Positions 8,150 to 32,480 of a DNA stretch of 34,775 nucleotides are shown piece after piece; positions within the stretch are counted from its first letter, which is position 1; every line of letters starts with the position of its first letter. The position numbers and the translations under genes were made by a program. Origin of the DNA: an uncultured Desulfobacca sp. (GTDB lineage Bacteria > Desulfobacterota > Desulfobaccia > Desulfobaccales > 0-14-0-80-60-11). The notes under the pieces were generated by a model. The model was not told the DNA's origin and did not search any database. It saw only the letters and a list, made by a program, of their open reading frames with translations. The DNA is taken from contig CAYNMI010000001.1 in assembly GCA_964398095.1 (NCBI GenBank), positions 1-34,775 on the forward strand, given 5' to 3'.

Positions 8150-8389
8150 TCATTCCCCCTGCAACGCCGACTGGAGGCGCTGGTATTCCTCCCTGGCGTC
8201 CTGGGAAGATTTGGCCTCTGCCAACGCGGCCAGAATCCGGCGCAAATCCTCCCGCTTCACCGTGACGTGTTCGATCTCCGGCGGGCAGCCGTCCACTCTC
8301 TTGCCATCCAGATACCACCCATATTGGTGGTAACCCTCAGGCATCAGGACCGCGCCGCATTTTTGGCATTTTAAATATTCCGGACTCAT
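8150..8389 (-). CDS. small conserved Cys/His protein (79 aa), last gene of cluster 1; paralog of 28089..28319
   Basis: Strong RBS (AAGGAGGAGAA-ATG). Sequence MSPEYLKCQKCGAVLMPEGYHQYGWYLDGKRVDGCPPEIEHVTVKREDL... By hand alignment, 58 of about 79 columns are identical to the 76-aa ORF at 28089..28319. I recognise no family. Confidence 0.75.
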   Translation of the reverse strand: MSPEYLKCQKCGAVLMPEGYHQYGWYLDGKRVDGCPPEIEHVTVKREDLRRILAALAEAKSSQDAREEYQRLQSALQGE

Positions 8390-8531
8390 TTCTCCTCCTT
8401 GCCCCGCCCCGGGGCCAGGGCCGCGCCCTGGTGGCGGAGACCTGGTTTTGGAACCTCTTCGGTGCTGTCAGCCGTTACCCAACGGCCATTGAGGACCCAG
8501 ATCTTCATCCAAGAATCTCGGGGTTCCAGGT

Positions 8532-10964
8532 TTATACCGATTTGGTCAGGCCATACAAGGGATACCCCTCTTCCCAGCGTCGGCGAATTATCCGGTTATC
8601 CCGCAGTAATTCGTTCAAGACCGGGGCGACTTCATCCGACCGTTCCCCCAAGGCCCTGGCGATCGCCGGCGGATTGAGGGGACCGTCGGTCAAGGCCCCG
8701 ATGATCCTGGCGGCCAGATATTCCTCCCGCAGCACATCCTGCATGCTCTCGTCGAAATCCACGGCATTGCATTGATCGCCGGGAAATTCTTTCTCCGATG
8801 GCCTTCTCAAGCTCACTCCCAAAACCCAGCGGACCCGGGGCCGATGCATGGTGGCGTGGGCCGCCAGGAGCCTTTTCTTGGTGTCTTCGGAGCGATCCAC
8901 GGGCCCCACCTGGTCCAGGTGGTCCAGGAAAGAATCCGCCATGCGGATAAAGGCCTCGGGCTGGTTCACCTCCACGTATCCCAAGGCGATGCGTTTCCTC
9001 GACAATCCGGACATGGCCAGCAGCTTCTTCATCAGGTAAACCCGGTGCCAGGTATGGTCCACGCCATAGCCGTAATGGCAGGAGGCGGTGGGCGTACAGC
9101 CGGCCAGCAGAATGCCGTTGGCCCCGTTCAAGAAGGCCATGGACAAAACCGTGGGGTCGATGGAGCCCAGGCAGTTCACCGGGATCAGGTAAACCCGGCT
9201 GGAATAGGCGAGCCCCTTGACGGCAGCCTGCTCGGCCGCGCCCTGGCCGCCCCAACTGCACACCAAGCCCAATACCGCGTCTTGCGGCATCCGGGGGAGA
9301 ATGGCCCTGATCCGGGCTTCCAACTGCTGGGAGCTGTTGTTGAGCAGCTTCATGGCTTCATAGGGACAGGCCGCGGCGCAACTGCCGCCGCCGTCACAGG
9401 TATGGGGACTCACATGCCGGGGGACGGCGCCGTTACCGGCCGCCACACTTTCCACCCCGCCGCAAGTGCAGATCTCGTTGCAGAGTCCGCAGCCCTCGCA
9501 CAGGGACTGGTCCACGGTAACCACCACCAGGGGGCTGGCCAGGCCGCCTTTGCGGGCCTTATCGCGCAGGTGCAGGACTTCCCGGGCCGCGTTTTTCCCC
9601 TGGAGCAGAGCTTCGTCCAGATCGCAGAGTTTCAGGGCCGAACCGGTAAGAATCAGGGATTCCACCGGCTTTTGATCGGGCTTCAGGGCCATGGGACCCT
9701 TCTTCAGGCTGCCGCCGTTGTGCGAGAAGAGGGGCAGGCAGCGCATCAATTCCCGGGCCTTGGCCAGGGGCTCGCCGGGAATGGCTGAAACCACCAGGGT
9801 ATCCCAGCCGACCTCATGTTCCAGGTGATCGTGCGGGTTGACGTAATTCAGATATCCCGATTTGACCACCGGATGGATGTCAGGATTATAGGGATAAAGC
9901 CCGATGCCGCGCCGGCGGGCTTCCACCAGGTCGGGTCCGGTCAGAGGCAACCGAATGTCCGCGGGATACAACACCGTGGGCCTCACCTGGGGATAATTCT
10001 GCACCAACACCTGGCTGGTCCGCCAGGCCGCGGCGGCGGCGAGTTCCTGGGCCCGCCGGCCCTCTTCCCGGTGGTTGACCCAAAAGACCACGCTCCCGGG
10101 TGTTACCCGCTTCCGGGCTAAGCGCTCTTCCAGGTCCAACTGGTCAATGACCCGGTCCGCGCCCCCCATGGCCCAGCCCTCCTCACTGGCGAACTCCCGA
10201 TCCAGGGCCAGGATGATGGCCGAACCCCTCAGTTCACTGACGCCGCCGGGAGATTGCTGCAAACCCACGTGGTAATCCCCCACCTGCCCCATCACATATT
10301 CCACGGGCTGGTCCGGCGCCATCTTGACCCGGGGATTGGCAAAAACTTCCTGGAGCATGGCTTCCAGGTCCCGGAAGTTGAGGCGGTTGCCGGGATAGGT
10401 CCGTTGCAGTCCTGTCAAAACTTCGCCCGGGTCCCGGGCCCCGGGGAATATCAGGCTTTCCATGCCATGATGGGCCAGTTCCCGGGCCGCGGCGAAACCG
10501 GAAATTCCGCCGCCCAGGATCAGGGCCGGACCCTGAAAGTCCGCCAGCACCGGTGCATAGGGTTCCAGCGTTTCGAGGCTGGCCCGGGCGCCCTCCAGCA
10601 GGGCGAGGGCTTTGCGGGTCAGCTCCGGGGAGTCATCTTCATGCACGGCCGCCAGGTGATCTTTCAAATTGACCAGGTCCACCTGGGGCGCCATGATCCC
10701 CAACGGCTTCAGCTCGCGGGCAAACTTCTTTTTCATGATCCGGTCGGAACAGGCGCCGATGAGCACCCGGTTGAGGCCGTGGTCCCGGGCCAGACGGGTC
10801 AAGGCCGCCAGCCCCGGCGCCATGCATAAGTAGGGGTGGATACTGACGTGGCCCACCCCCGGTTCACGGCTCAATTGAGCCCCAACCTCCCCCAGATTCA
10901 TCCGGCCGCTGATTTTTTCCCCACACTCACAGAGAAAGATCCCCAGTTTCACGTCGTCTTGCAT
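8532..10964 (-). CDS. HdrA-like (C-terminal-half type) flavoprotein fused to a ferredoxin domain, an MvhD/FlpD domain and a winged-helix-like tail
   Basis: Track ORF 8532..11000 (-). I prefer the ATG at 10964 (GCGGAGG RBS 5 nt upstream); the alternative ATG at 11000 abuts the upstream stop. Motifs: LGIFLCECGEKISG (HdrA thioredoxin-like domain), ALILGGGISGFAAARELA (dinucleotide fold), CEGCGLCNEIC and CDGGGSCAAACP (ferredoxin-like), and VCSWGG...NCLGSIDP...LLAGCTPTASCHYGYG (MvhD block). Confidence 0.8.
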   Translation of the reverse strand: MQDDVKLGIFLCECGEKISGRMNLGEVGAQLSREPGVGHVSIHPYLCMAPGLAALTRLARDHGLNRVLIGACSDRIMKKKFARELKPLGIMAPQVDLVNLKDHLAAVHEDDSPELTRKALALLEGARASLETLEPYAPVLADFQGPALILGGGISGFAAARELAHHGMESLIFPGARDPGEVLTGLQRTYPGNRLNFRDLEAMLQEVFANPRVKMAPDQPVEYVMGQVGDYHVGLQQSPGGVSELRGSAIILALDREFASEEGWAMGGADRVIDQLDLEERLARKRVTPGSVVFWVNHREEGRRAQELAAAAAWRTSQVLVQNYPQVRPTVLYPADIRLPLTGPDLVEARRRGIGLYPYNPDIHPVVKSGYLNYVNPHDHLEHEVGWDTLVVSAIPGEPLAKARELMRCLPLFSHNGGSLKKGPMALKPDQKPVESLILTGSALKLCDLDEALLQGKNAAREVLHLRDKARKGGLASPLVVVTVDQSLCEGCGLCNEICTCGGVESVAAGNGAVPRHVSPHTCDGGGSCAAACPYEAMKLLNNSSQQLEARIRAILPRMPQDAVLGLVCSWGGQGAAEQAAVKGLAYSSRVYLIPVNCLGSIDPTVLSMAFLNGANGILLAGCTPTASCHYGYGVDHTWHRVYLMKKLLAMSGLSRKRIALGYVEVNQPEAFIRMADSFLDHLDQVGPVDRSEDTKKRLLAAHATMHRPRVRWVLGVSLRRPSEKEFPGDQCNAVDFDESMQDVLREEYLAARIIGALTDGPLNPPAIARALGERSDEVAPVLNELLRDNRIIRRRWEEGYPLYGLTKSV

Positions 10965-11000
10965 GGCCGCCTCCGCGTTGCCGCCCTTCGCCGGCGTCAT

Positions 11001-11579
11001 TCAGGCCACCGCCCGGACCCGGTTGAAGAATTGTTCCATGGCTCCGGTGGGACAGACGTACAGACAGGTCCCGCAGCCGATACACTCCGGACTGGGTAAG
11101 TGATAGGAGGTGGTCACTTCCTTGTGTACGCCCCGGTTGCCGAAGGATAAGCACCCCACCCCGGCCACCTCCTCACAGGCCCGGACGCAGAGGCCGCAGA
11201 GAATACAAACGTCCTCATAACGGCTGCTCTTGAACCTGGATGCTTTGACCCCATAGGTCTGGGCCAGAACTTGCAGCCGCTCCGAGCCGGGGTGCTCGTC
11301 CACCAACATCTGGAGGATCCACCGGCGCACGTTCTGAATGCGGTCGCTCTCGGTCCAGACCTTGAGGCCGGCCCGGATGGGATAGAGACACGATGCCACC
11401 ATCCGGCGCCGCCGGCCGTCGTCCACTTCCACCATGCACAGCCGACAGGCTCCGGACGGTTCCACCGCGCCATGCTGACAGAGGGTGGGGATATCGATGC
11501 CGTGCTCCCGGGCCACCTCCAGAATGGTCCAGCCGTCCTGGCCGCTGACTTCCCGGTCGTTGATGGTGAGATGAACCAT
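11001..11579 (-). CDS. [2Fe-2S] plus 2x[4Fe-4S] ferredoxin-type subunit (NuoG / HydA N-terminal-like)
   Basis: Track ORF 11001..11714 (-), trimmed to the ATG at 11579 (GGAGGA RBS). Starts MVHLTINDREV...; contains CRLCMVEV (2Fe-2S fold), CILCGLCVRAC and CIGCGTCLYVCP. Confidence 0.85.
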   Translation of the reverse strand: MVHLTINDREVSGQDGWTILEVAREHGIDIPTLCQHGAVEPSGACRLCMVEVDDGRRRRMVASCLYPIRAGLKVWTESDRIQNVRRWILQMLVDEHPGSERLQVLAQTYGVKASRFKSSRYEDVCILCGLCVRACEEVAGVGCLSFGNRGVHKEVTTSYHLPSPECIGCGTCLYVCPTGAMEQFFNRVRAVA

Positions 11580-13980: not shown

Positions 13981-14022
13981 GGCCCTGCCCTCCGCCTTCT
14001 GGAGTATTTACCGCAATGCCAG

Positions 14023-14038
14023 AGCAAGCTTGAGGCCA
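14023..14038 (-). promoter_or_regulatory. sigma-54 (-24/-12) promoter of cluster 1: TGGCCTCAAGCTTGCT
   Basis: The reverse complement of 14023-14038 reads TGGCCTCAAGCTTGCT. GG and GC have the canonical spacing of TGGCAC-N5-TTGCW (positions 2-3 and 14-15). It lies about 40 nt upstream of the NuoE-like ATG and downstream of a sigma-54 activator gene. Confidence 0.6.
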
Positions 14039-14372
14039 CATAGCCTATCATAATGAAATTACTGGTAATTTAACGATGCAGGGAAAGGGGCGCGCTGGCC
14101 TTGGGAAGGTAAAATGAGCGAATGTGCAACAAAATTTGAGATAAATTATAGTATAGTTAGAATAATCAGCTAGTTATGATTTTTAAGCCTGATGTCGTAA
14201 AAATGGAACAAAGATGAGGGCCAGAGACATTTTCTCTCGGTTCGCAGGGGTCGATTATAAGACAGGAATGGGATGAAAATAGGACAGATTGCGGAGGTGC
14301 GGTTTCAATAAGATCATTCAAAAACCCGAAAACTCCCCAAAAACAAATTGTCGCAGAATTGCAACCCGCGTT

Positions 14373-15773
14373 TTAGAGATTAATTTCCGCCGCATTGATC
14401 TTATAGGCCTTCATCTTGCGCCAGAGCTTGCTGCGATGAATTTTCAGCAGGCGCGCTGCCTCCTGCTTGTGGCCGGAGGCCTGCTGCAGCGCCTTGACAA
14501 TGGTTTCCCGTTCCATGGCCTCCAGAGGGCTGATGGAGGGTTCTTCCCACAGGGCTTCGGTATGGAAGCGGGAGGCCTCCAGGGGCGGCAGGTGGCGCCG
14601 GGTGATAATCGGCCCTTTGGCAAACACGAAACAGTACTCCAGGACGTGCTGCAGCTCCCGGATATTGCCGGGCCACAGGTGGCGGCTGAAGGTCTTCATG
14701 ACCATGGGGTCCACCCCCCGGACCCGTTTGTTGAATTTGCGGTTGAGCTTTTCCAGAAAGTGCTTGACGAGAATCGGCAGATCCTCCCGTTTGTCCCGCA
14801 GCGGCGGCAGATGAATGGGCACGGTAAAGAGACGGTAGTACAGATCATCCCGGAATTTCCCCTGGCGCATGGCCTCCTTCAGGTCAACATTGGTGGCCGC
14901 GATGATCCTGGCCTCCAGGGGGATTTTGCGGTTGCCGCCCACCCGTTCGTAAGCCCGGTCTTCCAGGACCCTCAAAAGTTTTACCTGGATTTCCGGCCGG
15001 AGTTCGCCGATTTCATCCAGGAACAGCGTCCCGCCCCGGGCCGCCTCGAACCGGCCCGGTTTGGAGGCCACCGCCCCGGTAAAGGCCCCCCGTTCATGGC
15101 CAAAAAGCTCGGACTCCAGCAGGGTCTCGGGAATGGCGGAACAATTTACGGCCTGAAAGGGTCCCTGGCGCCGGGGACTGTGGGCGTGGATGGTCCGGGC
15201 CACCAGTTCCTTGCCGGTGCCTGACTCCCCCTGGATCAGCACATTGGACTCGGACGCGGCAATGATGGGCAGTCTCTGAATGAGCTCCTGTATCTGGGGG
15301 CTGATCCCCACAATCAGGGCCATGGCCTCCCGTTCCTTCTTCCCGGACGCCGGCAGGTGTAAGGCGTTCAGGTCATGAAAGGTTTCTATGCCCCCCAGGA
15401 TCAGGTTGCCGGCCTTCTTGATTTGGGAGGTATTAACCAGGATTAATCTTTTCTGTCCCCCTTTGGTGAGGATTTCCACCTCCCGGTCCAAGACGTATTC
15501 CCCGGTGGTCATGGAGATGCGCATGGGGCATCTTTTGTGGCACAACTCGCTCTGGAAGATTTCCCAGCAGAACTTGCCCAGGGCTTCCTCCCGGGAGAAC
15601 CCGGTGATTTCCTGGGCGGTTTGGTTAAAATAACTCAGTTGCCACCGGGTGTTCACCACGAACACCCCCTCGGGGAATTGGTCCAGGATCTCCGCATGAT
15701 TGAGGCCGAGGAATTTGAGGGCCCGGTCCATATTCTGATGGGCATTCTTTTCAAACGTCAGCACTGGGTCCAC
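14373..15773 (-). CDS. sigma-54-dependent transcriptional activator (PAS - AAA+ - Fis-type HTH), no receiver domain
   Basis: GTG start with a GGAGG RBS. PAS domain ([26 protein letters not shown]) carrying C-x8-C-x3-CP. Walker [15 protein letters not shown] loop (ERGAFTGA), Walker [12 protein letters not shown]-terminal [22 protein letters not shown]. Confidence 0.9.
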
Positions 15774-15949: not shown

Positions 15950-15965
15950 AGCAATTTCTATGCCA
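15950..15965 (-). promoter_or_regulatory. sigma-54 promoter of the cluster-1 activator gene: TGGCATAGAAATTGCT
   Basis: The reverse complement of 15950-15965 reads TGGCATAGAAATTGCT, with canonical GG/GC spacing. The 16-mer is identical to 19988-20003, which lies upstream of the paralogous activator. Confidence 0.6.
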
Positions 15966-16081: not shown

Positions 16082-17137
16082 TTATAGAGGACTCAGCCGG
16101 GGCAGGGTAAAAAAGAAGGTAGTGCCCCGGCTCGGATTGCTGGCCACCCAGATGCGGCCGCCGTGGGCGTCGATGATGCGCTTGACGATGGCCAGGCCCA
16201 GACCCAGGCCGCATTCCCTGGCGGAGCTATTCCCGCGATAGAGCAGTTCAAAGAGGTGGGCCTGGTCTTTCGGGGCAATTCCCGGACCCTGGTCTTGCAC
16301 CGAAAACTGCGCCTCGGTCCCCAAATCCCGGACCTCTAAGAAAATTAAACTCTGGGGCGGCGAATATTTAATGGCATTCTCCAACAGGTTGGCTAAAGCC
16401 CGCTGCAACAAGAGGGGATCGGCCTGGACCACCAAGGGGTCCGGGGGAAACTCGGTCTGCAAGGTTATCCCCTTGGCGTCGGCCAGAGGTTGAATCTGAC
16501 TGACCGCCTCCTGGCATTCCTCTTCCACCTGGACCGCGCTGGTGAGAGGCGTGATGAGGTGGAGATCCAGCCGGACATAATCGAGAAAGTTATTGATCAG
16601 CTTTTCCAACCGGCTGATTTCCTGGCTGATGGTCTGGATGTAAGCCGCCTGGGCTTCGGCCAGGGCGCCCACCTTGCCCTGGCCCAAACGCCTTAAGAGG
16701 CCGGCCGCCGCCACCACCGGGGTCTTCAGGTCGTGGGCGAACATGCCCACCAGTTGGCGGCGTTCATGCTCCAAACGCTTGAATAAGCCGATGTCCCTGA
16801 AGCTCTCCACTCCCCCCAGAAGGTTGCCCTGATCATCCCGTAAGGCCGACGCGGCCAGCATTACCTCGATCTTTTGGCCCTGGCGGTTTTGCAGGACCGC
16901 TTCCCGGCTCACCACCTCGCCGGAGTTCATGGCGGTTTTTAAGGGACATTCCTTGCCGCACAAACTGCTCCGCAGCACTTCGCCGCAATGTTTCCCCAGG
17001 GCCTTCTTCCGGACAAGCCCCGTGAGCTTTTCTCCGGCCCGATTGAGGTCGGTGACCTGCAAGCGCCCGTCCACGGTGATAATGCCGTCGGGCAGGCTCT
17101 GGATAATGAAATGCGGCCAATCACCGAGATCGCCCAT
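16082..17137 (-). CDS. cytoplasmic PAS sensor histidine kinase
   Basis: PAS domain (LPDGIITVDGRLQVTDLNRAGEKLTG) with the same C-x8-C-x3-CP motif (CGEVLRSSLCGKECP). H-box FAHDLKTP, N-box LLENAIKYS, G-boxes DQGPGI and GLGLGLAIV. No TM segment seen. Confidence 0.9.
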   Translation of the reverse strand: MGDLGDWPHFIIQSLPDGIITVDGRLQVTDLNRAGEKLTGLVRKKALGKHCGEVLRSSLCGKECPLKTAMNSGEVVSREAVLQNRQGQKIEVMLAASALRDDQGNLLGGVESFRDIGLFKRLEHERRQLVGMFAHDLKTPVVAAAGLLRRLGQGKVGALAEAQAAYIQTISQEISRLEKLINNFLDYVRLDLHLITPLTSAVQVEEECQEAVSQIQPLADAKGITLQTEFPPDPLVVQADPLLLQRALANLLENAIKYSPPQSLIFLEVRDLGTEAQFSVQDQGPGIAPKDQAHLFELLYRGNSSARECGLGLGLAIVKRIIDAHGGRIWVASNPSRGTTFFFTLPRLSPL

Positions 17138-17192: not shown

Positions 17193-17528
17193 TTACGGTT
17201 GGGTGCCTTCCATTTCTTGGAGACGTTTCTGGACTGCCTCCAGTTCACTCTTCAAAGCGGCTGCCTCGGCCCGGAGGGCCGCCGCGTCATCGGGGAGAGA
17301 GCCGGCCGCGGCAGGCCCAGGCCCGAAAGGGCCATAGCCTCCGGGACCATAGCCGCGCCGGAAACCGCCACCAAAACCATAACCGGGGCCCATACCCCAG
17401 ACACCGCGGCCCAAACCCCGGCCGCCGCCACGCATACCGCCACGGCGCATACCCGCGCCACAGGGACCCCGGCCCCAGCCGGTGCCCGGTCCCTGACCCC
17501 ACGGTCCGGTTGCATTGAAACCTGGCAT
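17193..17528 (-). CDS. DUF5320-like Gly/Arg-rich protein with a C-terminal coiled-coil
   Basis: Track ORF 17193..17597 (-), trimmed to the ATG at 17528 (GGAGG RBS 8 nt upstream). Sequence MPGFNATGPWGQGPGTGWGRGPCGAGMRRGG..., then AALRAEAAALKSELEAVQKRLQEME. This layout matches my recollection of the DUF5320 family. Confidence 0.7.
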   Translation of the reverse strand: MPGFNATGPWGQGPGTGWGRGPCGAGMRRGGMRGGGRGLGRGVWGMGPGYGFGGGFRRGYGPGGYGPFGPGPAAAGSLPDDAAALRAEAAALKSELEAVQKRLQEMEGTQP

Positions 17529-17647
17529 ATTCATTACCTCCTTGCCCTGAATTCTTGGGCTTTTCACAGACTCACTTCCCTGGCGTGCACGATGCAATCA
17601 AGCCAGTCCAACCATTCCAGGATTGGTTAAGCAAAGCCCCGGTGCTT

Positions 17648-18007: not shown

Positions 18008-18377
18008 GGTTAACTCCTTATCTCCACTTGCAGGTCAAGATTGAGGCTTCCCCCGGGGCGGGAGGGAAAGAGGGAGGAGGTTATCCATGCCGAGTTGGAT
18101 TTTCAGATAACCACCCTCCCGCTAGCCGGGGGAAAGTTTAGGTCAGGACGGCGCCGCCATCTACGCCCAACGAAACCGCCTTAAGGGTCATGCGGCCCGG
18201 CGTGCAGGATGCCCACTCCTTGGCCACCGAATTCTCCACGACTCACCCCATGGCCTGGCAGGGGACCGTGGGGTTTGACAATGGCTGCGCATCTCACGAC
18301 TTCCCGTTGATTGCCGCGGCATCCCCGCAAGGGCTGATGCCGCTTTCAGGCCTCTTAATTATTCACTATAGGTTATA

Positions 18378-22270: not shown

Positions 22271-25200
22271 ATGGCAGAAAAAGTGCTGGGCTCGGTAATG
22301 GTGGTGGGGGGCGGCATCGCCGGGATGCAGGCCGCCTTGGATTTGGCCAATTCGGGCTATCTCGTCCACCTGGTGGAAAAGAAGCCGGCCATCGGCGGGG
22401 TGGTGGCGCAGCTGGACAAGACCTTCCCCAGCAACGACTGCGCCATGTGAATTGTCTCCCCCAAGCTGGTCGAGGTCGGCCGGCACCGCAACATCGAGAT
22501 CCATACCCTGGCGGAACTGCAAGGCATCAGCGGCGAGCCCGGTGATTTTACCGTCCGCCTGGCCAAGCAGCCCCGCTACGTCGATCCCGCCAAATGCACC
22601 GGTTGTGGGGACTGCGCCAAGGCCTGTCCCGTGACCATGCCGGATGAATTCAACCTGGGGCTGGCGGATTGGCGGGCCGCATACCGCCTCTACCCCCAGG
22701 CCATCCCCCCGGCCTTCGCGGTCAAGAAACTGGACCGGGCCCCCTGTGTGCGAGCCTGTCCCGCCAATCTGAGCGCCCAGGGTTATGTGCAATTGATTAA
22801 GGCCGGCAAGTTTCAGGAGGCCCTGGCCCTGATCATGGACCGCCTGCCCCTGCCCGGCACCATCAGCCGCGTCTGTCCCCACCCCTGTGAGACCGACTGC
22901 CGCCGCCAGGAGCTCGATGAGCCCCTGGCCATCTGCGCCCTGAAGCGCTTCGTGGCCGATGCCGCGGACTGGGAGGCCCTGCCGGTGCCGGAGGTGGAGC
23001 GCCGGGAGGAGCGGGTGGCCATCGTCGGGGGCGGGCCCTCCGGTTTGGGCTGCGCCTATCATCTGGCCCTCATGGGATACCGGCCGGTGATCTTTGAGGC
23101 CGCCCCGGAGGCCGGCGGCTGGCTGCGCTACGGCATCCCGGAATATCGTCTCCCCCGGGAGGTGCTCCAAAGGGAAATCGACTACATCCGGAAGCTGGGT
23201 GTGGAGATCCACGGCAACACCCCCATCGGGGCAGGGCGCACCATCTCCGACCTGCTGGCCCGGGAGGGTTTCCGGGCGGTCTATTTAGGGGTGGGCTGTC
23301 AGGAATCTCTGTACCTGGCGGCGCCCGGGGTCGAGGCCCGGGGGGTGTTCTGGGGGGGCGAGTTCCTGAAGGACGCGGCCTCAGGTCAGGCGCCTCACTC
23401 TAAGGACAAGCGGGTCATCGTTATCGGCGGCGGCAATGTGGCCCTGGATGTGGCCCGCACCGCCCGGCGCCGGGGCGCGGCCCAAGTTACCGTCGTCTGT
23501 CTGGAGAACGCCTTTGAGATGCCGGCCTTGCCCTGGGAGGTGGAGGAAGCCGAGCAGGAAGGCATTGAGATCATGTATCGCTGGGGCGTCAAGCAGGTCC
23601 TCACCGCCGGCGATCAGGTAACCGGCATTGAACTGAAAGGGGTGGAGCGGGTCTTTGACGAGCAGGGGCGCTTCGCGCCCGTCTATCTTGAAGAACAGCT
23701 CCTCACCCTTGACTGTGAGATGGTGGTCATGGCCATCGGCCAGAAGGCCGATCTGAAGTTCCTGACCGAAGCGGACGGCGTCGCACTTACCCCCCGGGGC
23801 CTCATCCAGACGGACCCGGAGACCCTGGCCACCAGCCGGGAGGGGGTCTTTGCCGGGGGCGATGTGGTCTCCGGCCCCTTCATCGCCATCGCGGCGCTGG
23901 CCGCGGGCCGCGAAGCCGCCATTTCCATAGATCGCTATCTCAAGGGGATGGATCTGAAAGAAGGGCGGGAACTGCCGCTGCGGCCCATCCAGGAGGGCAA
24001 CTGGAATCCGGTTCCCAAGGGCCAGGCCAGGCAACCCCGGGTTGCCACCCCGGTTCTGCCCACCCCCGAATGGGTCCAGGGATTTGAGGAAATCCACCGG
24101 GGCTTCACCCAGGAACAAGCCGTGCAGGAGGCGGAGCGCTGCCTGGCCTGCGGCGTGTGCTCGGAATGTATGCAGTGTGTCGCGGCCTGCCTCCCCAAGG
24201 CCCTGGACCACCGCCAGCAGCCTCAATCCGTGGACCTCGAGGTGGGCGCGGTGATCCTGGCCCCGGGCTTTGCATCATTTGATCCCGGTCAGTATGAGGC
24301 TTATCACTATGCCTCGCACCCCAACGTGGTCACCAGTCTGGAGTTTGAACGCATTCTGTCGGCCTCCGGACCGTATTTAGGCCATCTTGTCAGACTTTCG
24401 GACCAACAGGAGCCCAAAAAGATCGCCTGGCTGCAATGCGTCGGCTCCCGGGATCTGCATCACGGCGATAACCGCTATTGTTCGTCGGTGTGCTGCATGT
24501 ATGCCATCAAACAGGCGATGCTGGCCCAGGATCACACTCACGGCCCTCTGGATACGGCCATTTTCTATATGGACCTGCGCACCCACGGCAAGGACTTTGA
24601 GAAATATTATCACCGGGCCGCGGACCGCGGCGTCCGGTTTATCCGTTCCCGGGTGCACAGCGTCGATGCGGCCCCGGACTCCCAGGAGCTGACCCTGCGC
24701 TATCTCTCGGAAGACGGCCGGGTGCAGACGGAAAATTTTGATCTGGTGGTGCTTTCCACGGGGCTGACGGCCCCGCCGGACGCCATTAAATTGGCCGACA
24801 CTTTAGGGGTCCAGGTAAACCCGGACACGCGTTTTGCGGCCACGAATCCCTTTACGCCGGTAACCACCCATAAGCCGGGGGTCTTCGTGTGCGGGGCTTT
24901 TCAGGGTCCCAAAGACATCCCCCAATCGGTCATGGAGGCCTCCGCCGCCGCGGCCGCCGCCAGCGAACTGCTGGCCGGGGCGCGCCATACCTTAAGCCGG
25001 ACCAAGCCTGACTATTCCGAGCGTGACGTCTCCCAGGAAGATCCGCACATCGGCGTGTTCATCTGCCATTGCGGCACCAATATTGCCGGCGTCGTAGATG
25101 TCGCGGCGCTGCGGGACTACGCCGAAACCTTGCCCCAGGTGGAGAATGCGGAAACCTTCCTCTTCGCCTGCTCCCAGGATAGTCAGGCAACCCTGAAGGC

Positions 25201-26746
25201 CCGGGCCGCGGAACTTGGGCTCAACCGCGTGGTCGTGGCCTCGTGCAGCCCCCGCACCCACGAACCCGTGTTCCAGGAGGCCCTCAAGGAGGCCGGACTC
25301 AACCCTTATCTCTTTGATATGGCCAACATCCGGGACCACGACGCCTGGGTGCACATGGGTGATCCCGCGGCCGCCCTGGAAAAGGCCAAAGACCTGGTGC
25401 GCATGGCCGCGGCCCGGGCCGCCAACCTGGAATCTCTGCAAAGGCAGAAATTCCCGGTAACCCGGGCCGCCCTCATTGTCGGCGGCGGCGTGGCCGGCCT
25501 GGAAGCGGCCCGCTCCCTGGGCAACATGGGCTTTCAGAGCTACCTGGTGGAGAAAGGCGACCGTCTAGGAGGCAATGCCTGGAGCCTGCTCGTCAGCCAC
25601 CGCGGTTACCGTTACCGGGATTATCTGGAAGAACTGGTGCAAGCCGTGACCCATCACCCGCACATCGACATCATGTATGGCTCCCAGGTCAAAGAGGCCG
25701 GCGGTTTCATCGGCAATTTCCAGACCGTGATCGCCACTCCCGACGGCGACCGGGAACTGGAGCACGGCGTCACCATTCTGGCCACGGGCGGCGCCCCCCT
25801 GATCCCGCAAGAATATCTCTATGGCCAGCACCCTGATGTGCTGCTGTCCCTGGAACTGGATAAGGCCATTGCCGGGCAAGACCCCCGGGTGGCGAACGCC
25901 CGGCAGGCCGTGTTCATCCAATGTGTGGGGTCCCGGGAACCGGAGCGGCCTTATTGCAGCCGGCTGTGCTGCACCCACGCGGTGGAGCAGGCCCTGATCC
26001 TCAAAGAATCGAACCCCGGCCTGGATGTTTTCATCTTGTATCGGGATTTGCGCACCTATGGCGACAAGGAGCTGCTCTATCAAGAGGCCCGGGAGAAGGG
26101 GGTCGTGTTCATCCGCTACGACCTGGAAAACAAGCCCAAAGTGGCCCAGACCCCCGCAGGCGGCCTCAAGGTGACCGTCCAGGACCTCATCCTGGGGCGG
26201 CCGCTGGAGTTGCGGCCCGACTTCCTCACCCTGGCCAGCGCCATAGTGCCCAGCCCCGCGGCCGAGTTGGCGGAGATCTTTAAGGTGCCGCGCAACCAGG
26301 AGGGCTTCTTCAGCGAAGTGCATGCCAAGCTGCGCCCGGTGGACTGCGTGGCGGACGGCGTCTATCTGGCCGGCATGGCCCATTATCCCAAGCCCATGGA
26401 TGAATCCATCGCCCAGGCCAAGGCCGCGGCGGCCCGGGCCGCCACGGTCCTGGCCCAGGATGAGGTGGCCGTAGAACCGCTGGTGTCCATGGTGGACCCG
26501 GAGCTTTGCCTGGGCTGCGGCCTCTGCGAACTCACCTGCCCCTTCGGGGCCATGCGCCTTATCAAGGAGCCGGGGAAAAGATACCATGCCGAGAACCAGC
26601 CCGCCTACTGCAAGGGCTGCGGCATCTGCGCCGCGGGCTGCCCGGTCCAGGCCATTGACATGCTCCATTTCCGGAAACGGCAGATCCTGGCCGCCATCCA
26701 TGCCGGCGGGCAAAGGATTGCGGCGGTGGCGTCCGCCGGGAGATAG
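22271..26746 (+). CDS. hdrL: giant HdrA-like selenoprotein with an inserted GltD/NfnB-like NAD(P)H-FAD module (HdrL-type), 1491 aa with Sec at residue 60 (TGA 22448-22450)
   Basis: Track ORFs 22049..22450 and 22631..26746 are in the same frame and are separated only by one TGA. Joined, they read ...[23 protein letters not shown]..., which is the conserved HdrA block. Downstream come a GltD-like region ([38 protein letters not shown]), an HdrA core (WLQCVGSRD...[10 protein letters not shown]), a thioredoxin-like domain ([13 protein letters not shown]), a second HdrA-like half ([35 protein letters not shown]) and a terminal 2x[4Fe-4S] ([24 protein letters not shown]). Confidence 0.85.
22465..22484 (+). 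other. SECIS-like hairpin 15 nt downstream of the hdrL UGA
   Basis: GCUGGUC (22465-22471), loop GAGGUC, GGCCGGC (22478-22484): a 7-bp stem including two G-U pairs. The same 20-mer occurs at the same offset after the hdrA UGA (29648-29667). Caveat: it also encodes the conserved KLVEVGRH peptide. Confidence 0.45.
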
Positions 26747-26748
26747 CC

Positions 26749-26913
26749 ATGCAAGCGGAATTCCCGGCGTTTCTGGGTAAAGGATGCGCTTATGCCAGTA
26801 CTGCCTCGGACAGGATGTCCCGGTTTCCGTATCCCTCTCAAATCCGGGTCATTTTCAACCTGGGTGCCGGCAGGTGGTTCCGGTCTAAGAGCTGGAGGCA
26901 GGAGGGACCATGA
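26749..26913 (+). CDS. 54-aa ORF resembling only the N-terminal third of MvhD, with most Cys ligand positions substituted (possible remnant or adaptor)
   Basis: Below the track's size cut-off; my own translation gives MQAEFPAFLGKGCAYASTASDRMSRFPYPSQIRVIFNLGAGRWFRSKSWRQEGP. Compare MvhD at 28445: ILAFLCKWCSYASADLAGVSRFQYPPNIRVMLTMCSGRV. The ATG is 2 nt after the hdrL stop, and the stop overlaps the next start (ATGA at 26910-26913). Confidence 0.4.
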   Translation: MQAEFPAFLGKGCAYASTASDRMSRFPYPSQIRVIFNLGAGRWFRSKSWRQEGP

Positions 26914-28031
26914 AGACTTTTTCCCATCTGATCCAAGAGGTGCAGGAGAAGGGCCTCTGCCACCATTGCGGGGGCTGCGTGGCGTTTTGCAATGCCATCA
27001 ATTACGGGGCCCTGGAGTTGGGGGAGAACGGCAGGCCGCGCTACAGCAATATTGAAAAGTGCATCGAGTGCGGCATCTGCTATGCGATTTGCCCGGAGAT
27101 CGGGGAACTGGACGAGGAAATCAAGACCTTGGTGTCCTGGAGCCCCCCCATGGGCCACAATATGGGAATCGCCGTGGCCCGGGCCAAGGACCCGGAGGTG
27201 CGGACCCGGGCCACCGACGGCGGGGTGGTGACCGCCCTGTTGCTCCGCCTGTTTGACCGCGGCCACATCGATGCGGCCATCGTCAGCAAGAAGGTGGCGC
27301 CCTTCCAGCGCCACCCCAGTCTGGCGCACTCCCGGGAAGACATCATCGATGCCGCGGGGTTCCATTTCGACACCCTGGCCAGCATGCACCTGTTCTCCGA
27401 GGTCTACTCCACGTTTTCGCCCTCAATCGTGCGGCTGCGCGAGGTGGCCAAGATGACCTACCACCGGGTGGCCTTTGTGGGGACGCCCTGCCAGATTAAT
27501 ACCTTGCGGCGCATGGAGGTGCTGGGAGTGGTGCCGTCTGAGGCCATTAAGTTCCATTTCGGCCTGTTCTGCTCCGGGAACTTCCAATTCGGCCCGGAGC
27601 AGCGCCGGCGTCTGGAAAAGATCGGCGATTTTAACTGGGCCGATGTCTATAAAATTAACGTCAAAGAAGATCTGATGATCCACCTGCGCAATAAGAAGGT
27701 CCGTCACATCCCCCTGGACCAACTGGCCTTCATGAAACGGTACGCCTGCCAGTTCTGCGACGACTATGCCGCGGAATATGCCGACCTCTCCTTTGGGGGC
27801 ATCGGCGCGCCCGAAGGCTGGACCACGGTGATCGTTCGCTCCCCGTTGGGGCGGGGGCTCCTGGCTGACGCCATGGAGAAGTATGTCGAGCGCTACAATT
27901 ATCGGGAAAATCCCTTTTTAGTGTCCGAGGCCATGGCCAAGATCCTGGAGTGGTCCGACAAAAAGAAGCACAACGCCGCGGCGAAGCACCATGAACTCGA
28001 AATGAGTCATGGTGAGTTAGAAGTACAATAG
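26910..28031 (+). CDS. FrhB/FdhB-family (coenzyme F420 hydrogenase/dehydrogenase beta subunit-like) iron-sulfur flavoprotein
   Basis: N-terminal ferredoxin-like CHHCGGCVAFC / CIECGICYAICP. FrhB-type blocks DGGVVTALL, VAFVGTPCQINTL, FGLFCSGNF and CQFCDDYAAEYADLSFGGIG. GGAGG RBS. Confidence 0.85.
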   Translation: MKTFSHLIQEVQEKGLCHHCGGCVAFCNAINYGALELGENGRPRYSNIEKCIECGICYAICPEIGELDEEIKTLVSWSPPMGHNMGIAVARAKDPEVRTRATDGGVVTALLLRLFDRGHIDAAIVSKKVAPFQRHPSLAHSREDIIDAAGFHFDTLASMHLFSEVYSTFSPSIVRLREVAKMTYHRVAFVGTPCQINTLRRMEVLGVVPSEAIKFHFGLFCSGNFQFGPEQRRRLEKIGDFNWADVYKINVKEDLMIHLRNKKVRHIPLDQLAFMKRYACQFCDDYAAEYADLSFGGIGAPEGWTTVIVRSPLGRGLLADAMEKYVERYNYRENPFLVSEAMAKILEWSDKKKHNAAAKHHELEMSHGELEVQ

Positions 28032-28444: not shown

Positions 28445-29203
28445 ATGGCAGGTAAGTTCGAACCAAAGATCCTGGCGTTTCTGTGCAAATGGTGTTCCTA
28501 TGCCAGCGCCGACCTGGCCGGGGTGTCCCGGTTTCAGTATCCCCCTAATATCCGGGTCATGCTCACCATGTGCTCCGGCCGGGTCGATCCGGTCTTTGTG
28601 ATGGAAGGGTTGAGCAGCGGGTTCGACGGGGTCTTCGTGTTTGGCTGACACTTCGGGGACTGTCATTACCTGGATGGTAATGTTTATGCCAACAAGCGGA
28701 TGCAGATCGTGAGCCAGTTGCTCGAGACCGCCGGCCTCGGCCGCGACCGGTTGCAACTCCGCTGGGTCAGTTCCGCGGAAGGCCAGGTCTTTGCCGAATA
28801 TGTCACCGAGTTGACCGAAGTGATCCGGGAGGTGGGCCCCCTGGACCGGGAGAAATACAGCCGTTCCCTGGCCGCGGCGGAAAGGGCTTTGGAAGCCGTG
28901 CCGGTCAGGTGGTTGATGGGTATGGAGAAGCAGCTTACGGAACAGGAAAATGTTTACCATGAAAAGTTGGATCCCGATCATTTCCAGATGGTTCTGAAGC
29001 AGATGGCCGAAGAAGAATATCAGAAAGCCCTGCTGTTTGAAGTCTTGAAAGAAGGACCCAAAACCGTGCGCCAGATGGCCGCGGGGACCGGCTTATCGGT
29101 ATACACCGTGTCCCTCCGCTTGAACGATCTGGAAAGGAGCGGCCAGGCGGACTTCTCCGGCCACGAGGGGACCACCCCCAGATTCAGATTGACGGCCGTC
29201 TAA
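28445..29203 (+). CDS. mvhD: MvhD/FlpD-like selenoprotein with a C-terminal winged-helix-like extension, 252 aa with Sec at residue 68 (TGA 28646-28648)
   Basis: Track ORFs 28403..28648 and 28700..29203 are in the same frame. Joined across the TGA they read ...GFDGVFVFG-U-HFGDCHYLDGNVYANKRMQIV..., i.e. the MvhD GCHxGDCHY block with U replacing the first Cys. ATG at 28445 with a GAGGAG RBS. The cluster-1 fusion has Cys at the aligned position (LLAGCTPTASCHY). Confidence 0.8.
28664..28682 (+). other. SECIS-like hairpin 16 nt downstream of the mvhD UGA
   Basis: CAUUACC (28664-28670), loop UGGAU, GGUAAUG (28676-28682): a perfect 7-bp stem. Confidence 0.45.
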
Positions 29204-29444: not shown

Positions 29445-32400
29445 ATGCACCCTGGAGAAACGGGCAACATTGGCGCGGTGGTCGTCGTAGGGGGCGGTAT
29501 TGCCGGTATGCAGGCCTCGCTGGACCTGGCGAACTCAGGTTACTTTGTCTATCTGGTGGACCGGTCTCCCAGCATCGGCGGGACCATGGCGCAGATCGAC
29601 AAGACCTTTCCCACCAACGATTGCGCCATGTGAATTATCTCGCCCAAGCTGGTCGAGGTCGGCCGGCATATTAATATCGAAGTAATCACCTGCACCGAGT
29701 TGGAATCCTTAGAGGGTGAGGCCGGAAATTTTCGCGCCGTTCTAAAGAACCAGCCGCGCTACATTATGCCGGAAAGATGCACCGCCTGTGGAGACTGCCA
29801 GCGGGTCTGTCCCGCCAAAGCGGTGAATGAATTCAACCTGAGCCTGGACCGGCGGGAAGCCACGTATATCAAATACCCCCAGGCCGTCCCCCGGGCCTAC
29901 GCCATCGACCGGGATGCGTGTCTCGGTTGCGGCCTGTGCCAAAAGGTCTGTCTGGCCGAGGCGGTGAAATATGACGACCAGCCGCGCCTCCGGGACTTGG
30001 AGGTCGGCGCGGTGATCCTGGCGCCGGGTTTTGCGCCCTTTGATCCCTCCCATCTCACCTCCTACAACTATGGCAAGTCGCCCAATATCCTCACCAGCCT
30101 GGAATTTGAGCGCATCCTCAGTCCTTCCGGTCCCTATAAGGGCCATGTCATGCGCCCCTATGACCGGGAGGAACCCAAAAAGATCGCCTGGATCCACTGT
30201 GTCGGCATGCGGGGGGCCCGGGAGGGGCTGCACGCCTACTGTTCCAATTTTTGCTGCATGGCGGCCCTCAAGCAGGCCGTCATCGCCCGGGAGCACATCG
30301 GCCCCCATCTGGATATGGCCCTGTTCTACATGGATATGCGTACTCCCCGGAAGGATTTTGAAAAATACTGCGTCCGCCTCAAAGACCAGGGGGCCCGCTT
30401 AATCCGGTCCCGGGTGCATAGCGTCGACCCGCTGGGCGAGTCCGGGGATTTAAACATTCACTATATCACCGAGGCCGGGGAGATTCAGGATGAAATCTTC
30501 GACCTGGTGGTGCTGTCCATAGGCGGGGTGATCTCCCCCGGAACGATTGAACTGGCCGGCAAGTTGGGGGTCAATCTGAGCCCGAATCGGTTTATGGACA
30601 CCACCTGTTTTCAACCGGTGGCCACTTCCCGTCCGGGGGTATTTTCCTGCGGTTTCTTGAACGGGCCCAAGGATATCCCCCAGTCGGTGATGGAAGGCAG
30701 CGCCGCCGCGGGGGCGGCCGCCACGATGTTGGCCGCGGCCCGGGGCACCCTGGCCCAGGAGAAGGTGTTTCCGCCGGAGCAGGATGTGCTGCGTGCAGCG
30801 CCCCGGGTGGGGGTCTTTGTCTGCCATTGCGGTTTGAATATCGGCGGGATCGTCGATGTGCCCGCCATCATGGAAGCCGCCGAGGCCATTCCTCAGGTGG
30901 AATATGTGCAGGCCAATCTCTTCACCTGTTCCCAGGACGCCCAGAACCTGATGATGGAAAAGATCCTGGAGCATAAGCTGAACCGGGTGGTGGTGGCGTC
31001 CTGCAGCCCTTCCACCCACCAGGCGATCTTTCAGGATATGCTCAGAAATGCCGGCCTCAACAAGTATCTCTTCGAGATGGCCAATATTCGCAACCAGTGC
31101 AGTTGGGTCCACATGAAACAGCCGGAGGCGGCCACCGAAAAATGTAAGGACCTGGTCCGCATGGCGGTGGCCAAGGCCCGCCTGCTGGAGCCCCTGGATT
31201 ACATTTCCGTGCCGGTTAACAAAACCGCCCTGGTAGTCGGCGGGGGCGTTGCGGGGATGACCGCAGCCCTGGCCCTGGCCGATCAGGGTTTTGCCGTGCA
31301 CCTCGCCGAGAGAAAGGACCGGCTGGGGGGCAATGCCCTTAAATTGCACACCACCTGGCGGGGCGGCCTGGTGGCGCCCCGGGTGGCGGATTTAATCGCT
31401 AAAGTTGAAAATCACCCCCATATCACCATCCATTTCAACTCCACCGTAATGGACGTGTCCGGGGTGGTGGGCAACTTTAAAACCACCCTCTCCGGGGACC
31501 AGGTAATCGAACACGGCATCGTGATCTTAGCCATCGGCGCCGAGCCCTATCGGCCGATCGGCGAGTATCTCTACCAGGAAAATCCCAACGTCTTGCTCTC
31601 CCTGGATCTGGACGAGGAAATCGCCGCGGGGAGCGAGCGGCTGCAGCAAGTCCAGGCCGCGGCCTTCATCCAGTGCGTGGGCTCTCGGATTCCCGAAAGG
31701 CCATACTGCAGCAAGGTCTGTTGCAGCCATTCCGTGGAAAACGCCCTGAAGCTGAAAAAGCTGAACCCGGAGATGCAAGTCTACATCATTTTCCGGGATA
31801 TGCGCACCTACGGCGAACGGGAGATGCTCTACGAGGAGGCCCGGAACCAGGGAGTGATTTTTTTCCGCTATCACCAGGCCGACCCTCCCCGGGTGGAGGA
31901 GGCGGACGGCAGGCTCAAGATTACCGTTACGGACCTCACCCTCCAAAGACCGGTGGAGTTTTCGGTTGACCTCCTGTCCCTGGCCACCGCGATTATCCCC
32001 CACCGCAATGCTCCCCTGGCGGAGATCTACAAGATTCCCCTGAATGCGGAAGGTTTCTTCACCGAGGCCCACGCCAAGATCAGGCCCATCGACGCCTCCA
32101 CCGAAGGGATCTTCCTGGCCGGCCTCTGCCATTATCCCATACCCATCCAGGAATCGGTGGCCGAAGCCCTGGCCACCGCCGCCCGGGCCACCACCATCCT
32201 ATCCAAGGATTCCCTGCTGCTGGAATCGATTATCTCCCGGGTGATTGACGCCAACTGTGACGGCTGCGCCTTCTGTGTGGATGCCTGTACCTTTAAGGCC
32301 ATAACCCTCCTGGAGTATATGTCTGACGGGAAAATGAAAAAGACCGTGGAGGTCAACGAGGCCCTGTGCAAGGGTTGCGGCTCCTGTATGGCCACCTGCC

Positions 32401-32480
32401 CCAAAATGGGTATTGAAGTGGCGGGATTCACCCTGGACCAGTTGGGCGCCCAGGTGGAGGCGGCCTTGGGCCTGGCGTGA
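29445..32480 (+). CDS. hdrA: tandem HdrA-like selenoprotein, 1011 aa with Sec at residue 63 (TGA 29631-29633)
   Basis: Track ORFs 29445..29633 and 29700..32480 are in the same frame. Joined they read ...[23 protein letters not shown]... Also [26 protein letters not shown]...[23 protein letters not shown], a second half ([37 protein letters not shown]), and terminal [11 protein letters not shown] / [12 protein letters not shown]. Collinear with hdrL apart from hdrL's roughly 470-aa insertion. Confidence 0.85.
29648..29667 (+). other. SECIS-like hairpin 15 nt downstream of the hdrA UGA
   Basis: The 20-mer GCUGGUC-GAGGUC-GGCCGGC is identical to 22465-22484 and sits at the same offset from the UGA. 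Confidence 0.45.

Follow-up and report, generated by a model that had tools for sequence, protein, structure and literature searches.

The complete contig CAYNMI010000001.1 (34,775 bp, hereafter the window) of an uncultured Desulfobacca sp. encodes, in two gene sets that we call module 1 and module 2, NuoE- and NuoF-like subunits, HdrA-type proteins (among them an HdrL), MvhD and an FrhB-like flavoprotein. In our reading, which we consider probable, both modules specify one soluble multi-flavin iron-sulfur (FeS) confurcation/bifurcation complex, whose genes constitute a single sigma-54 operon in relatives and are split here, with the genes for the sigma-54 activator and for a small Cys/His protein duplicated. 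Domain content, motifs, orthology and the single-operon arrangement in relatives were read directly from the sequences compared below.

Gene identities were established by Pfam scans of the window proteins and, for selected proteins, by NCBIfam scans; the G+C content ranged from 54 to 64% in 2-kb windows. The gene content that a first-pass annotation of this DNA had listed for both modules was matched gene by gene (Table 1). Its layout had to be corrected in two respects: module 1 is located on the minus strand and module 2 on the plus strand, so that the two are divergent units and not co-oriented ones, and the small gene placed at the end of module 2 lies inside the operon, directly upstream of mvhD.

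The related loci used for comparison were the contigs of six relatives of the FrhB-like protein and of the closest HdrL, with the operons L013/L014, L015, L016, L017, L018 and L019, and two other HdrL loci (L020 and L021). In all six of these independent operons, the genes for the activator, NuoE, NuoF, a ferredoxin-like protein (Fdx), an HdrA-like::MvhD fusion of ~810 amino acids (aa) and the FrhB-like protein followed one another in a single sigma-54 operon. L017 ended after frhB, and the remaining five (L013/L014, L015, L016, L018 and L019) continued with an HdrA that is a fused dimer, or with a variant of such a protein (HdrA/HdrL), followed by a selenocysteine (Sec)-containing MvhD and an HdrA(Sec). 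The tblastn identities between window proteins and L013 were 80% for the activator (activator 2), 60% for NuoE, 52% for NuoF, 54% for Fdx, 59% for the 822-aa fusion protein, 76% for FrhB, 66–71% for HdrL on either side of an insertion, 72% for MvhD and 82% for HdrA, and the genes of the window and of the related loci are accordingly orthologues. With regard to HdrL, its complete form was found inside an unsplit operon in L019, an orthologue without the GltD-like insertion in L013 and L018, and a protein with an Fer2 N-terminus in place of the GltD-like module in L015 and L016. Since relatives have a single operon, the window represents a rearranged copy. Two further features of these loci were recorded: three tandem IS1595-family transposase genes break up the operon between mvhD and the last hdrA in L018 (15326-18325), and the nuoF orthologue of L019 (3015-4926) was called as two overlapping genes (235 and 407 aa), the result of either a frameshift or faulty assembly.

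Repeats within the window are confined to three stretches. The activators are 76.8% identical in DNA over 1331 nt and 74% identical in protein, the small genes are 79.9% identical in DNA over 264 nt and 74% identical in protein, and the third stretch is a 5' remnant of mvhD. Only module 1 has NuoE, NuoF, the 2Fe2S protein and the 822-aa protein; only module 2 has the FrhB-like protein, HdrL, a free MvhD and HdrA. The earlier statement that every electron-wire and entry part is present twice could hence not be maintained, as only the activators and the small proteins are paralogous and the redox genes are complementary.

The small protein had been put forward as a possible electron acceptor. 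Three invariant Cys (CxxC...C) are held by its N-terminal motif, LKCxKCGAVMxxEGYxxYGWYLDGxRVEGCP, and the tail is helical in the closest relatives and basic in others; its gene always either immediately precedes mvhD(Sec) or follows the MvhD fusion. No family was recognised by Pfam and NCBIfam scans, and a Foldseek search against PDB with the AF2 model, which is of moderate confidence (pLDDT 70.6), returned no match at E < 0.9. Five relatives were present in a database of 5.8 billion proteins, and an exhaustive HMMER search retrieved ~10 short relatives that have only the N-terminal motif in common; weak repeat-like HMMER matches in very large proteins were set aside as uninformative. Surveying gene neighbourhoods for co-occurrence of the FrhB-like and small proteins, as the first-pass annotation had proposed, gave a divided answer, in that the former is encoded in all six related operons and the latter in none (tblastn, E = 1e-3). 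The small protein is thus restricted to a very narrow lineage and, because it is so rare, is unlikely to be a general acceptor; with five relatives only and no copy in the six operons, that proposal was abandoned. An accessory or assembly role tied to MvhD is possible.

These results bear on the view, taken in the first-pass annotation, that the window encodes two parallel, redundant Hdr-like complexes, each supplied by an NAD(P)H entry module of its own and passing electrons to an unconventional acceptor, for which the small Cys protein was a candidate. Each unit does possess its own activator, sigma-54 boxes and small gene, and an NADH site in NuoF of module 1 has a counterpart in the GltD-like NAD(P)H site in HdrL of module 2. 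However, the redox genes are not paralogous, the 822-aa protein sharing just 22% identity with the tandem HdrA of module 2 (second half) and being devoid of HdrA's cluster motifs, the six related loci have one operon, and the small protein, which has no more than three invariant Cys and matches neither a family nor a fold, is missing from those operons and very rare overall. We consider two redundant complexes improbable.

The position of the MvhD remnant directly after hdrL implies that the ancestral order was hdrL-mvhD, as in L019, and that frhB and the small gene were inserted later. The remnant itself is 50% identical to MvhD residues 11-46, its DNA being 74.6% identical to positions 28470-28595, and the 53-codon open reading frame (ORF) had no Pfam match; the MvhD-like fragment noted earlier is therefore real. 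An 87-aa ORF (26792-27055) was rejected as a gene or MvhD fragment, as it belongs to no family and its reading frame differs from that of the MvhD-like stretch. In this rearrangement, the operon was severed behind the 822-aa gene, frhB came to lie with the small gene in the space separating hdrL from mvhD, where the remnant stayed behind, and both the activator gene and the small gene were duplicated. The two duplicated pairs have diverged to a similar extent, which suggests that they arose in one event. As a lineage-specific rearrangement, the splitting and partial duplication are of lesser importance than the gene set itself.

With regard to the proteins encoded, module 1 constitutes a HydBC/Bfu-type module for NADH and ferredoxin plus the 822-aa protein as an adaptor. 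The NCBIfam matches of the NuoE-like protein were under the equivalog cut-offs. The NuoF-like protein has ~190 extra N-terminal residues, in which Pfam recognised a 2Fe-2S_thioredx domain in the orthologues of L016 and L018, and a C-terminal 2x[4Fe-4S] domain. Its best solved relatives were all of the bifurcating Bfu/HydB type (9bov_B, StnB 8oh5_B, 9n5u_B, 7t2r_B and 7q4v_B; E ~1e-200 to 1e-213), comprising StnB, Bfu-type NfnB, NiFe-HydB and FeFe-HydB, whereas complex I NuoF was matched only at E ~1e-100; the protein is thus of the Bfu type. In line with this, the Bfu hallmark, that is, a BfuB with an N-terminal addition and C-terminal 2x[4Fe-4S] together with a NuoE-like BfuC with [2Fe-2S], was found in module 1. 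In the NCBIfam scan, the 192-aa FeS protein partially matched HoxU as well as the models for NuoG and A6 [FeFe] hydrogenase, in these two at their N-terminal region.

The 822-aa protein is organised as an HdrA N-domain, a degenerate TrxR-like domain, a C-terminal 2x[4Fe-4S] domain, an MvhD [2Fe-2S] domain and a conserved C-terminal extension, and it aligned with residues 9-249 and 497-653 of solved HdrA and with MvhD. Neither the inserted ferredoxin domain nor the DCxMC(U) and CxxCC cluster motifs were detected in it by alignment and motif scan, and it does not combine the FAD domain, flavin-proximal 4-Cys motif and inserted ferredoxin domain by which HdrA is recognised. In seven orthologues, Cys 24, 26, 59 and 84, those at 501-545, and Cys 581, 610, 635 and 641 were invariant, as were a GGG dinucleotide motif and a C-terminal motif. 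The protein is accordingly a cofactor-depleted HdrA scaffold fused to MvhD, from which the flavin-domain cluster motifs have gone. In solved Hdr complexes, HdrA's N-terminal and C-terminal domains and MvhD move jointly as a mobile arm (PMC12350162), and the 822-aa protein looks like such an arm in a single polypeptide.

Module 2 provides an HdrA-type core with two fused-dimer HdrA proteins, a Sec-containing MvhD with a winged helix and an FrhB/FdhB-type FAD/FeS subunit. Both HdrL and the tandem HdrA matched HdrA structures (E ~1e-189) and have the GxGxxG, CxxCC and Fer4 motifs of HdrA; the NCBIfam score was under the equivalog cut-off (925 vs 1100 bits). Each contains two flavin motifs, two CxxCC motifs and a Cys-x-x-Sec pair in the first flavin domain (C60/U63 in the tandem HdrA, C57/U60 in HdrL), which matches by position Cys59-Cys62 of BamE from class II benzoyl-CoA reductase (BCRII). 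In HdrL, a GltD/NfnB-like 2x[4Fe-4S]-FAD-NAD(P)H module is inserted at residues ~160-623, where it separates the two CxxCxxCxxxC motifs (109-119 and 624-640) that belong to the inserted ferredoxin domain. The features typical of HdrL, i.e., HdrA with a GltD-like NAD(P)H module, Sec and an adjoining mvhD, were all present, with the mvhD remnant directly after the gene and the intact mvhD 1.7 kb downstream. The 120 relatives listed were 56–77% identical, mostly 1,250–1,520 aa long, and came from Desulfobaccales and Thermodesulfobacteriota; HdrL is common.

The FrhB-like protein of 373 aa combines the N and C domains of the FrhB/FdhB family, which are predicted to bind FAD and [4Fe-4S], and its NCBIfam scores were under the cut-offs for FrhB (126 vs 331.5) and FpoF (93 vs 475). 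A total of 1784 relatives were retrieved at E <= 1e-10, the best 120 of which were 64–82% identical and labelled Deltaproteobacteria, Syntrophobacterales or Thermodesulfobacteriota. The best solved relatives, aligned over the full length, were 8rja_E and 8riu_B, from structures deposited with a study showing that F420 reduction is coupled to Fwd and CODH in an ethane-oxidising archaeon (PMC11493965). In Desulfatibacillum alkenivorans DSM 16219 (L011 5009-12942), the order hycI-hdrA(tandem)-mvhD-frhB-like-NiFe small-NiFe large, without hdrBC, was observed, and the FrhB-like protein is 55% identical to that of the window. This locus encodes an Frh/Mvh-like hydrogenase joined to HdrA, and the FrhB-like family recurs as the subunit beside MvhD.

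The presence of Sec in the HdrA and MvhD proteins, as annotated earlier, was confirmed by three in-frame TGA codons at 22448, 28646 and 29631, within the motifs NDCAM*I and VFG*HFGDCHY (asterisk, TGA). They occupy the classical Sec positions of HdrA and MvhD, and gene callers split the relatives' genes at the same places. A candidate Sec insertion sequence (SECIS) hairpin follows each of them; the folding energy of these hairpins was no better than that of shuffled sequence (hdrL z = 0.03), and they are hence proposed from position and shape.

No match to CCG (PF02754)/HdrBC was found by Pfam in any plausible gene of the window, nor was a NiFe or FeFe hydrogenase large subunit or a molybdopterin enzyme, and the identified genes tile the contig too tightly to conceal one. 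The first-pass annotation had recorded the absence of CCG/HdrBC, hydrogenase large subunit and Mo/W-pterin subunit, and the Pfam scans agreed with it. Nor was it an artefact of the window: according to the gene tables, no CCG gene occurs within ~10 kb at L013/L014, L015, L016, L017, L018 or L019, or at the HdrL loci L020 and L021, making eight sampled related loci in total. At the two HdrL loci, HdrL is accompanied only by MvhD or by a 149-aa gene. From the overall interpretation given earlier, it was thus the absence of HdrBC/CCG in the window and the eight loci that stood, while the duplication and the small protein as acceptor fell; the lack of HdrBC near HdrA-MvhD, rightly noted, is not new, having been known as an open question since 2009 (PMC2702500).

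A partner encoded elsewhere is a serious rival explanation. The window would then hold a fragment of a standard Hdr system, whose high-potential electrons pass to HdrBC, HdrD, DsrC or a thioredoxin-like thiol/disulfide partner elsewhere in the genome, as proposed for HdrABC/HdrL of Syntrophobacter fumaroxidans. In that organism, Sfum_0819-0824, where hdrABC is joined by MvhD, HdrL and an FeS protein, shows high abundance with sulfate (PMC5947623), so that a partner at a distance is conceivable here. Similarly, Desulfobacterium autotrophicum has many hdrA/hdrL-mvhD loci without hdrBC (HdrL1-3) together with separate hdrD genes (PMC2702500). In L020 (7992-14920), a paralogue of HdrL (64% identical) adjoins divergent genes for a glutaredoxin, a ferredoxin-thioredoxin-reductase catalytic (beta) chain (FeThRed_B) and a DUF169 protein, a context that hints at a thiol/disulfide partner for some HdrL proteins. 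Moreover, the window is one whole 34.8-kb contig, the remaining genome lying outside view. Against this, a CCG gene within ~10 kb was found at 0/8 related loci, and the L017 operon consists of the Bfu module, the adaptor and the FrhB-like protein without any HdrA core; on balance, we regard this explanation as unlikely.

As to how the modules would assemble together, which way electrons would flow and what substrates the single complex that we favour would use, we infer a two-stage machine of the BCRII kind, in which Bfu-type confurcation would feed HdrA-type bifurcation. By analogy with BCRII, NADH and reduced ferredoxin would be confurcated at the Bfu module. The low-potential branch would leave through the inserted ferredoxin domain, which is the low-potential exit in HdrA and BamE (10.64898/2026.04.10.717634) and which in HdrL would carry the NfnB/GltD-like NADP(H) flavin module. 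Electrons would be delivered to NADP(H) at HdrL, to external ferredoxin through the inserted ferredoxin domains and to the FrhB-like flavin. The FAD of the FrhB-like protein would be the best candidate site for a third substrate, because it is the sole extra substrate site kept in all relatives. For the high-potential exit, served in other systems by HdrBC or BamD, no partner would be encoded here. The most likely role, by analogy, would be the balancing of the NADH, ferredoxin and NADPH pools and one further carrier under a Cys-PAS redox sensor.

Several points weigh against this scheme. The proposed co-assembly is drawn solely from gene order in relatives. In the literature consulted, the characterised HdrA-type bifurcators, BCRII included, all have a CCG-type high-potential subunit, and for a complex without CCG there is no precedent proven to work; the lack of a high-potential exit leaves the mechanism with a real gap. 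In addition, the HdrL/MvhD/FeS cluster of S. fumaroxidans adjoins hdrABC (PMC5947623). Furthermore, relatives without the GltD-like insertion (L013, L018) or with the Fer2 N-terminus (L015, L016) cannot use NADP(H) at that site, so that a transhydrogenase role cannot be general. More tentatively, these loci may define an uncharacterised class of bacterial bifurcating enzymes, with a core of NuoE, NuoF, the FeS protein, pseudo-HdrA::MvhD and the FrhB-like protein, which together with HdrA, HdrL and MvhD would chain up to three module types (Bfu, HdrA and NfnB-like), free of CCG, and in which the FrhB-like flavin would serve a third substrate, which could be a hydride carrier (deazaflavin-like or other) or a protein partner; for the present, we would give this wider proposal limited weight.

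Control by sigma-54, as annotated earlier, was substantiated. With one mismatch at most allowed, the sigma-54 consensus had nine matches in the window against 2.96 expected, a number that 0/100 shuffles reached. The TGGC-N7-CTTGCT box of module 1 is kept upstream of nuoE in L013, L015, L017 and L018, and the activators of L013, L015 and L017 are also preceded by similar sigma-54 boxes. Sigma-54-like boxes at 18379-18393 and 19445-19459 precede the DUF5320/NifX-like gene groups described below. Between the modules lies the gene for a soluble PAS-HisKA-HATPase histidine kinase (16082-17137, minus strand), whose PAS domain is 35% identical to that of the activators and shares with both of them the motif C-x9-C-x3-CP. 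A receiver domain is absent from both activators, and the conserved Cys of the PAS domain suggest a redox or metal signal. The sequence GCGACAT/ATGTCGC recurs in the AT-rich gaps between activator and operon (13981-14372 and 21800-22270) and in the upstream regions of L013, L015, L017 and L018, and this recurrence upstream of the operons makes it a candidate activator site.

Table 1. Coordinates of the genes, promoter boxes and RNA elements of the window.
Feature	Position	Strand	Details
ABC ATPase, cut by contig end	2-682	-	in Mo/W-type uptake operon
ModA/TupA-like SBP_bac_11 binding protein	683-1444	-	in Mo/W-type uptake operon
Permease	1461-2180	-	in Mo/W-type uptake operon
FmdE + zinc finger + MoCF_biosynth fusion	2392-4152	-	in Mo/W-type uptake operon
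Small protein 1, 79 aa	8150-8389	-	three invariant Cys (C8, C11, C35)
822-aa HdrA-like::MvhD fusion	8532-11000	-	weak NAD_binding_8, two Fer4, FlpD/MvhD E = 1.7e-28
BfuA/BamI/NuoG-N-terminal-like protein, 192 aa, [2Fe-2S] + 2x[4Fe-4S]	11001-11579	-	Fer2_4, Fer4_7 (2x Fer4)
NuoF/HydB/BfuB-like FMN/NAD(H) subunit, 638 aa	11594-13510	-	Pfam Complex1_51K, NADH_4Fe-4S, two C-terminal Fer4
NuoE/HydC/BfuC-like [2Fe-2S] thioredoxin-like subunit, 155 aa	13513-13980	-	Pfam 2Fe-2S_thioredx, E = 3.5e-42
Module 1 operon sigma-54 box TGGCCTCAAGCTTGCT	14023-14038	-	58 nt upstream of nuoE
Activator 1	14373-15773	-	PAS (C-x9-C-x3-CP) + Sigma54_activat AAA+ + HTH_8
Sigma-54 -24/-12 box TGGCATAGAAATTGC, upstream of activator 1	15951-15965	-	identical to box at 19988-20002
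Sigma-54 box TGGCATAGAAATTGC, upstream of activator 2	19988-20002	+	identical 15-mer
Activator 2, 563 aa	20108-21799	+	PAS with same Cys motif + AAA+ + HTH_8
Candidate module 2 operon sigma-54 box TGGTCTCTTCTTTGCA	22096-22111	+	175 nt upstream of hdrL; weaker than module 1 box
HdrL, 1491 aa, Sec60	22271-26746	+	fused-dimer HdrA; Fer4_20 + Pyr_redox_2 at residues 156-546
Candidate SECIS hairpin, hdrL	22465-22484	+	17 nt after TGA; 8-bp stem, AGGU loop
MvhD N-terminus remnant, 53-codon ORF	26749-26910	+	two of three Cys lost
FrhB/FdhB-family protein, 373 aa	26910-28031	+	2x[4Fe-4S] + FrhB_FdhB_N (E = 2.3e-17) + FrhB_FdhB_C (5.3e-34)
Small protein 2, 76 aa	28089-28319	+	directly upstream of mvhD(Sec), as in L002-L008
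Long MvhD, 252 aa, Sec68	28445-29203	+	FlpD E = 2.8e-49; C-terminal winged helix, HTH_24 E = 2.8e-4 (weak)
Candidate SECIS hairpin, mvhD	28664-28682	+	18 nt after TGA; energy not significant
Tandem (fused-dimer) HdrA, 1011 aa, Sec63	29445-32480	+	two GxGxxG, two CxxCC, four Fer4 motifs
Candidate SECIS hairpin, hdrA	29648-29667	+	17 nt after TGA; stem same as that of hdrL

Outside the two modules, a molybdate/tungstate-type ABC uptake operon occupies positions 2-4152 (minus strand), and no Mo/W enzyme was found on the contig that carries it. A carboxymuconolactone decarboxylase (CMD/AhpD-like) family protein (4325-4651, minus strand) is encoded beside a TPR protein and an ABC-2 exporter and is seemingly unrelated. 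Between the modules, a DUF5320 protein and two NifX-like (Nitro_FeMo-Co) proteins are encoded at 17193-19381 (minus strand), the second of the latter (18683-19381, minus strand) having a long Gly/Gln/Arg-rich low-complexity stretch and CxxC...CxxC at its end. NifX-like, CbiA/ParA-Fer4 and TrmO genes flank the operon in L016-L020 too, and the NifX-like group may share a regulon with the operon or serve cofactor assembly. Downstream of the module 2 operon, CbiM and a probable CbiN-like membrane protein for cobalt/nickel uptake are encoded at 32854-34108 (plus strand). Rfam revealed no riboswitch in the 370-bp gap upstream of CbiM, and an Rfam gathering search and a tRNA scan of the whole window gave no match.

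Ever since the first Desulfobacterium genome, HdrA-MvhD and HdrL loci that lack HdrBC have been an open problem for our understanding of energy metabolism in sulfate reducers and syntrophs. What is new here is that one conserved sigma-54 operon ties a widespread set of such loci to a HydBC/Bfu-type module for NADH and ferredoxin and to a flavoprotein of the FrhB-like kind; the position of the GltD-like insertion in HdrL and the split arrangement on the present contig are further new elements. The outcome is a defined set of 8–9 proteins with a short list of candidate substrates (NADH, ferredoxin, NADPH and the ligand of the FrhB-like flavin). Should a complex free of CCG prove to work, the rule that HdrA-type bifurcation requires an HdrBC-like exit would need to be widened.

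Compared with known systems, the window does not have HdrB/HdrC (CCG) encoded with HdrA, as HdrABC and Flx-Hdr do. The Flx module, which Ramos and coworkers reportedly described in 2015, is said to comprise an FlxA-type NAD(P)H flavoprotein with FlxB/C, similar to sulfhydrogenase gamma/beta. An assignment to Flx was rejected, because the NADH module found here is of the NuoE/NuoF type (Complex1_51K, 2Fe-2S_thioredx). As in the Fdh-Hdr and Elp-Hdr systems of methanogens (FdhB/ElpB - MvhD - HdrABC), a FrhB-family FAD/4Fe4S subunit adjoins MvhD; there, it feeds the bifurcating FAD of HdrA. Those systems differ from the window in that F420H2 or formate is used, HdrBC is present, HdrA is not a fused dimer and no NuoEF module occurs.

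The likeness to the HdrL loci of sulfate reducers lies in a large Sec-containing HdrA with a GltD-like module followed by MvhD, in an FdhB/FrhB-like FeS protein and a further HdrA nearby, and in HdrBC being usually not adjacent, from which the S. fumaroxidans cluster differs by including hdrBC. Unlike the published HdrL loci, the window family is linked to a NuoEF (Bfu) module and the 822-aa adaptor, a link not described in the literature consulted. In Desulfurivibrio dismutans, "NuoEFG homologs next to hydrogenase subunits" are reported to be induced in sulfur disproportionation (PMC12142623); these genes (RS00815-00795) may be the same core.

In common with the Bfu family (Schut et al. 2022), the window has a BfuB-type NuoF, a BfuC-type NuoE and a short BfuA with 2Fe2S and 2x4Fe4S and, as in the F420-Bfu and Nfn-Bfu/Stn types, an FrhB-family flavoprotein or a GltD-like module as the candidate site for a third substrate. 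In F420-Bfu, stated to be archaeal and absent from bacteria, the FrhB-like domain is fused to BfuA (Schut et al. 2022), whereas the FrhB-like protein of the window is separate and preceded by the pseudo-HdrA::MvhD, a bacterial arrangement not described in the Bfu survey. The GltD-like module of the window belongs to HdrL and not to BfuA.

The closest characterised design, as judged by domain architecture, is the BamEFGHI part of BCRII. In this enzyme, Bam[(BC)2DEFGHI]2 of Geobacter metallireducens, the HydBC-type BamGH confurcates NADH and reduced ferredoxin, BamI (an FeS subunit) and BamF, a long MvhD with a winged helix and Sec, relay the electrons, and BamE, whose fused HdrA dimer contains the Cys59-Cys62 pair, bifurcates them, at low potential to BamBC and at high potential to BamD, from which they go on to ETF (10.64898/2026.04.10.717634; PMC9304861). 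Comparing domain architectures with this published description, we found counterparts of the E, F, G, H and I components: NuoE-like and NuoF-like subunits, a small subunit with 2Fe2S and 4Fe4S clusters, a long Sec-containing MvhD that ends in a winged helix, and an HdrA in fused-dimer form whose redox pair is here Cys-x-x-Sec, with two types of bifurcation module coupled in series. Given these matching parts and the uptake operon with its FmdE-MoCF fusion at 2-4152, the window could be supposed to encode the part that supplies electrons to a class II aryl-CoA (benzoyl-CoA-type) reductase or to a different W/Mo enzyme with catalytic subunits elsewhere. However, no gene for BamB (aldehyde-ferredoxin-oxidoreductase-type), BamC or BamD was found in the window or the related operon loci, and the conserved FrhB-like subunit is not among the eight described BCRII subunits, BamB to BamI, which leaves this explanation very improbable. 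In contrast to BCRII, the window has neither the BamB/BamC tungsten unit nor the HdrBC-like exit BamD, and it adds the FrhB-like protein, a second fused-dimer HdrA in the form of HdrL with its GltD-like module, the 822-aa pseudo-HdrA::MvhD and control by sigma-54 and PAS-type activators.

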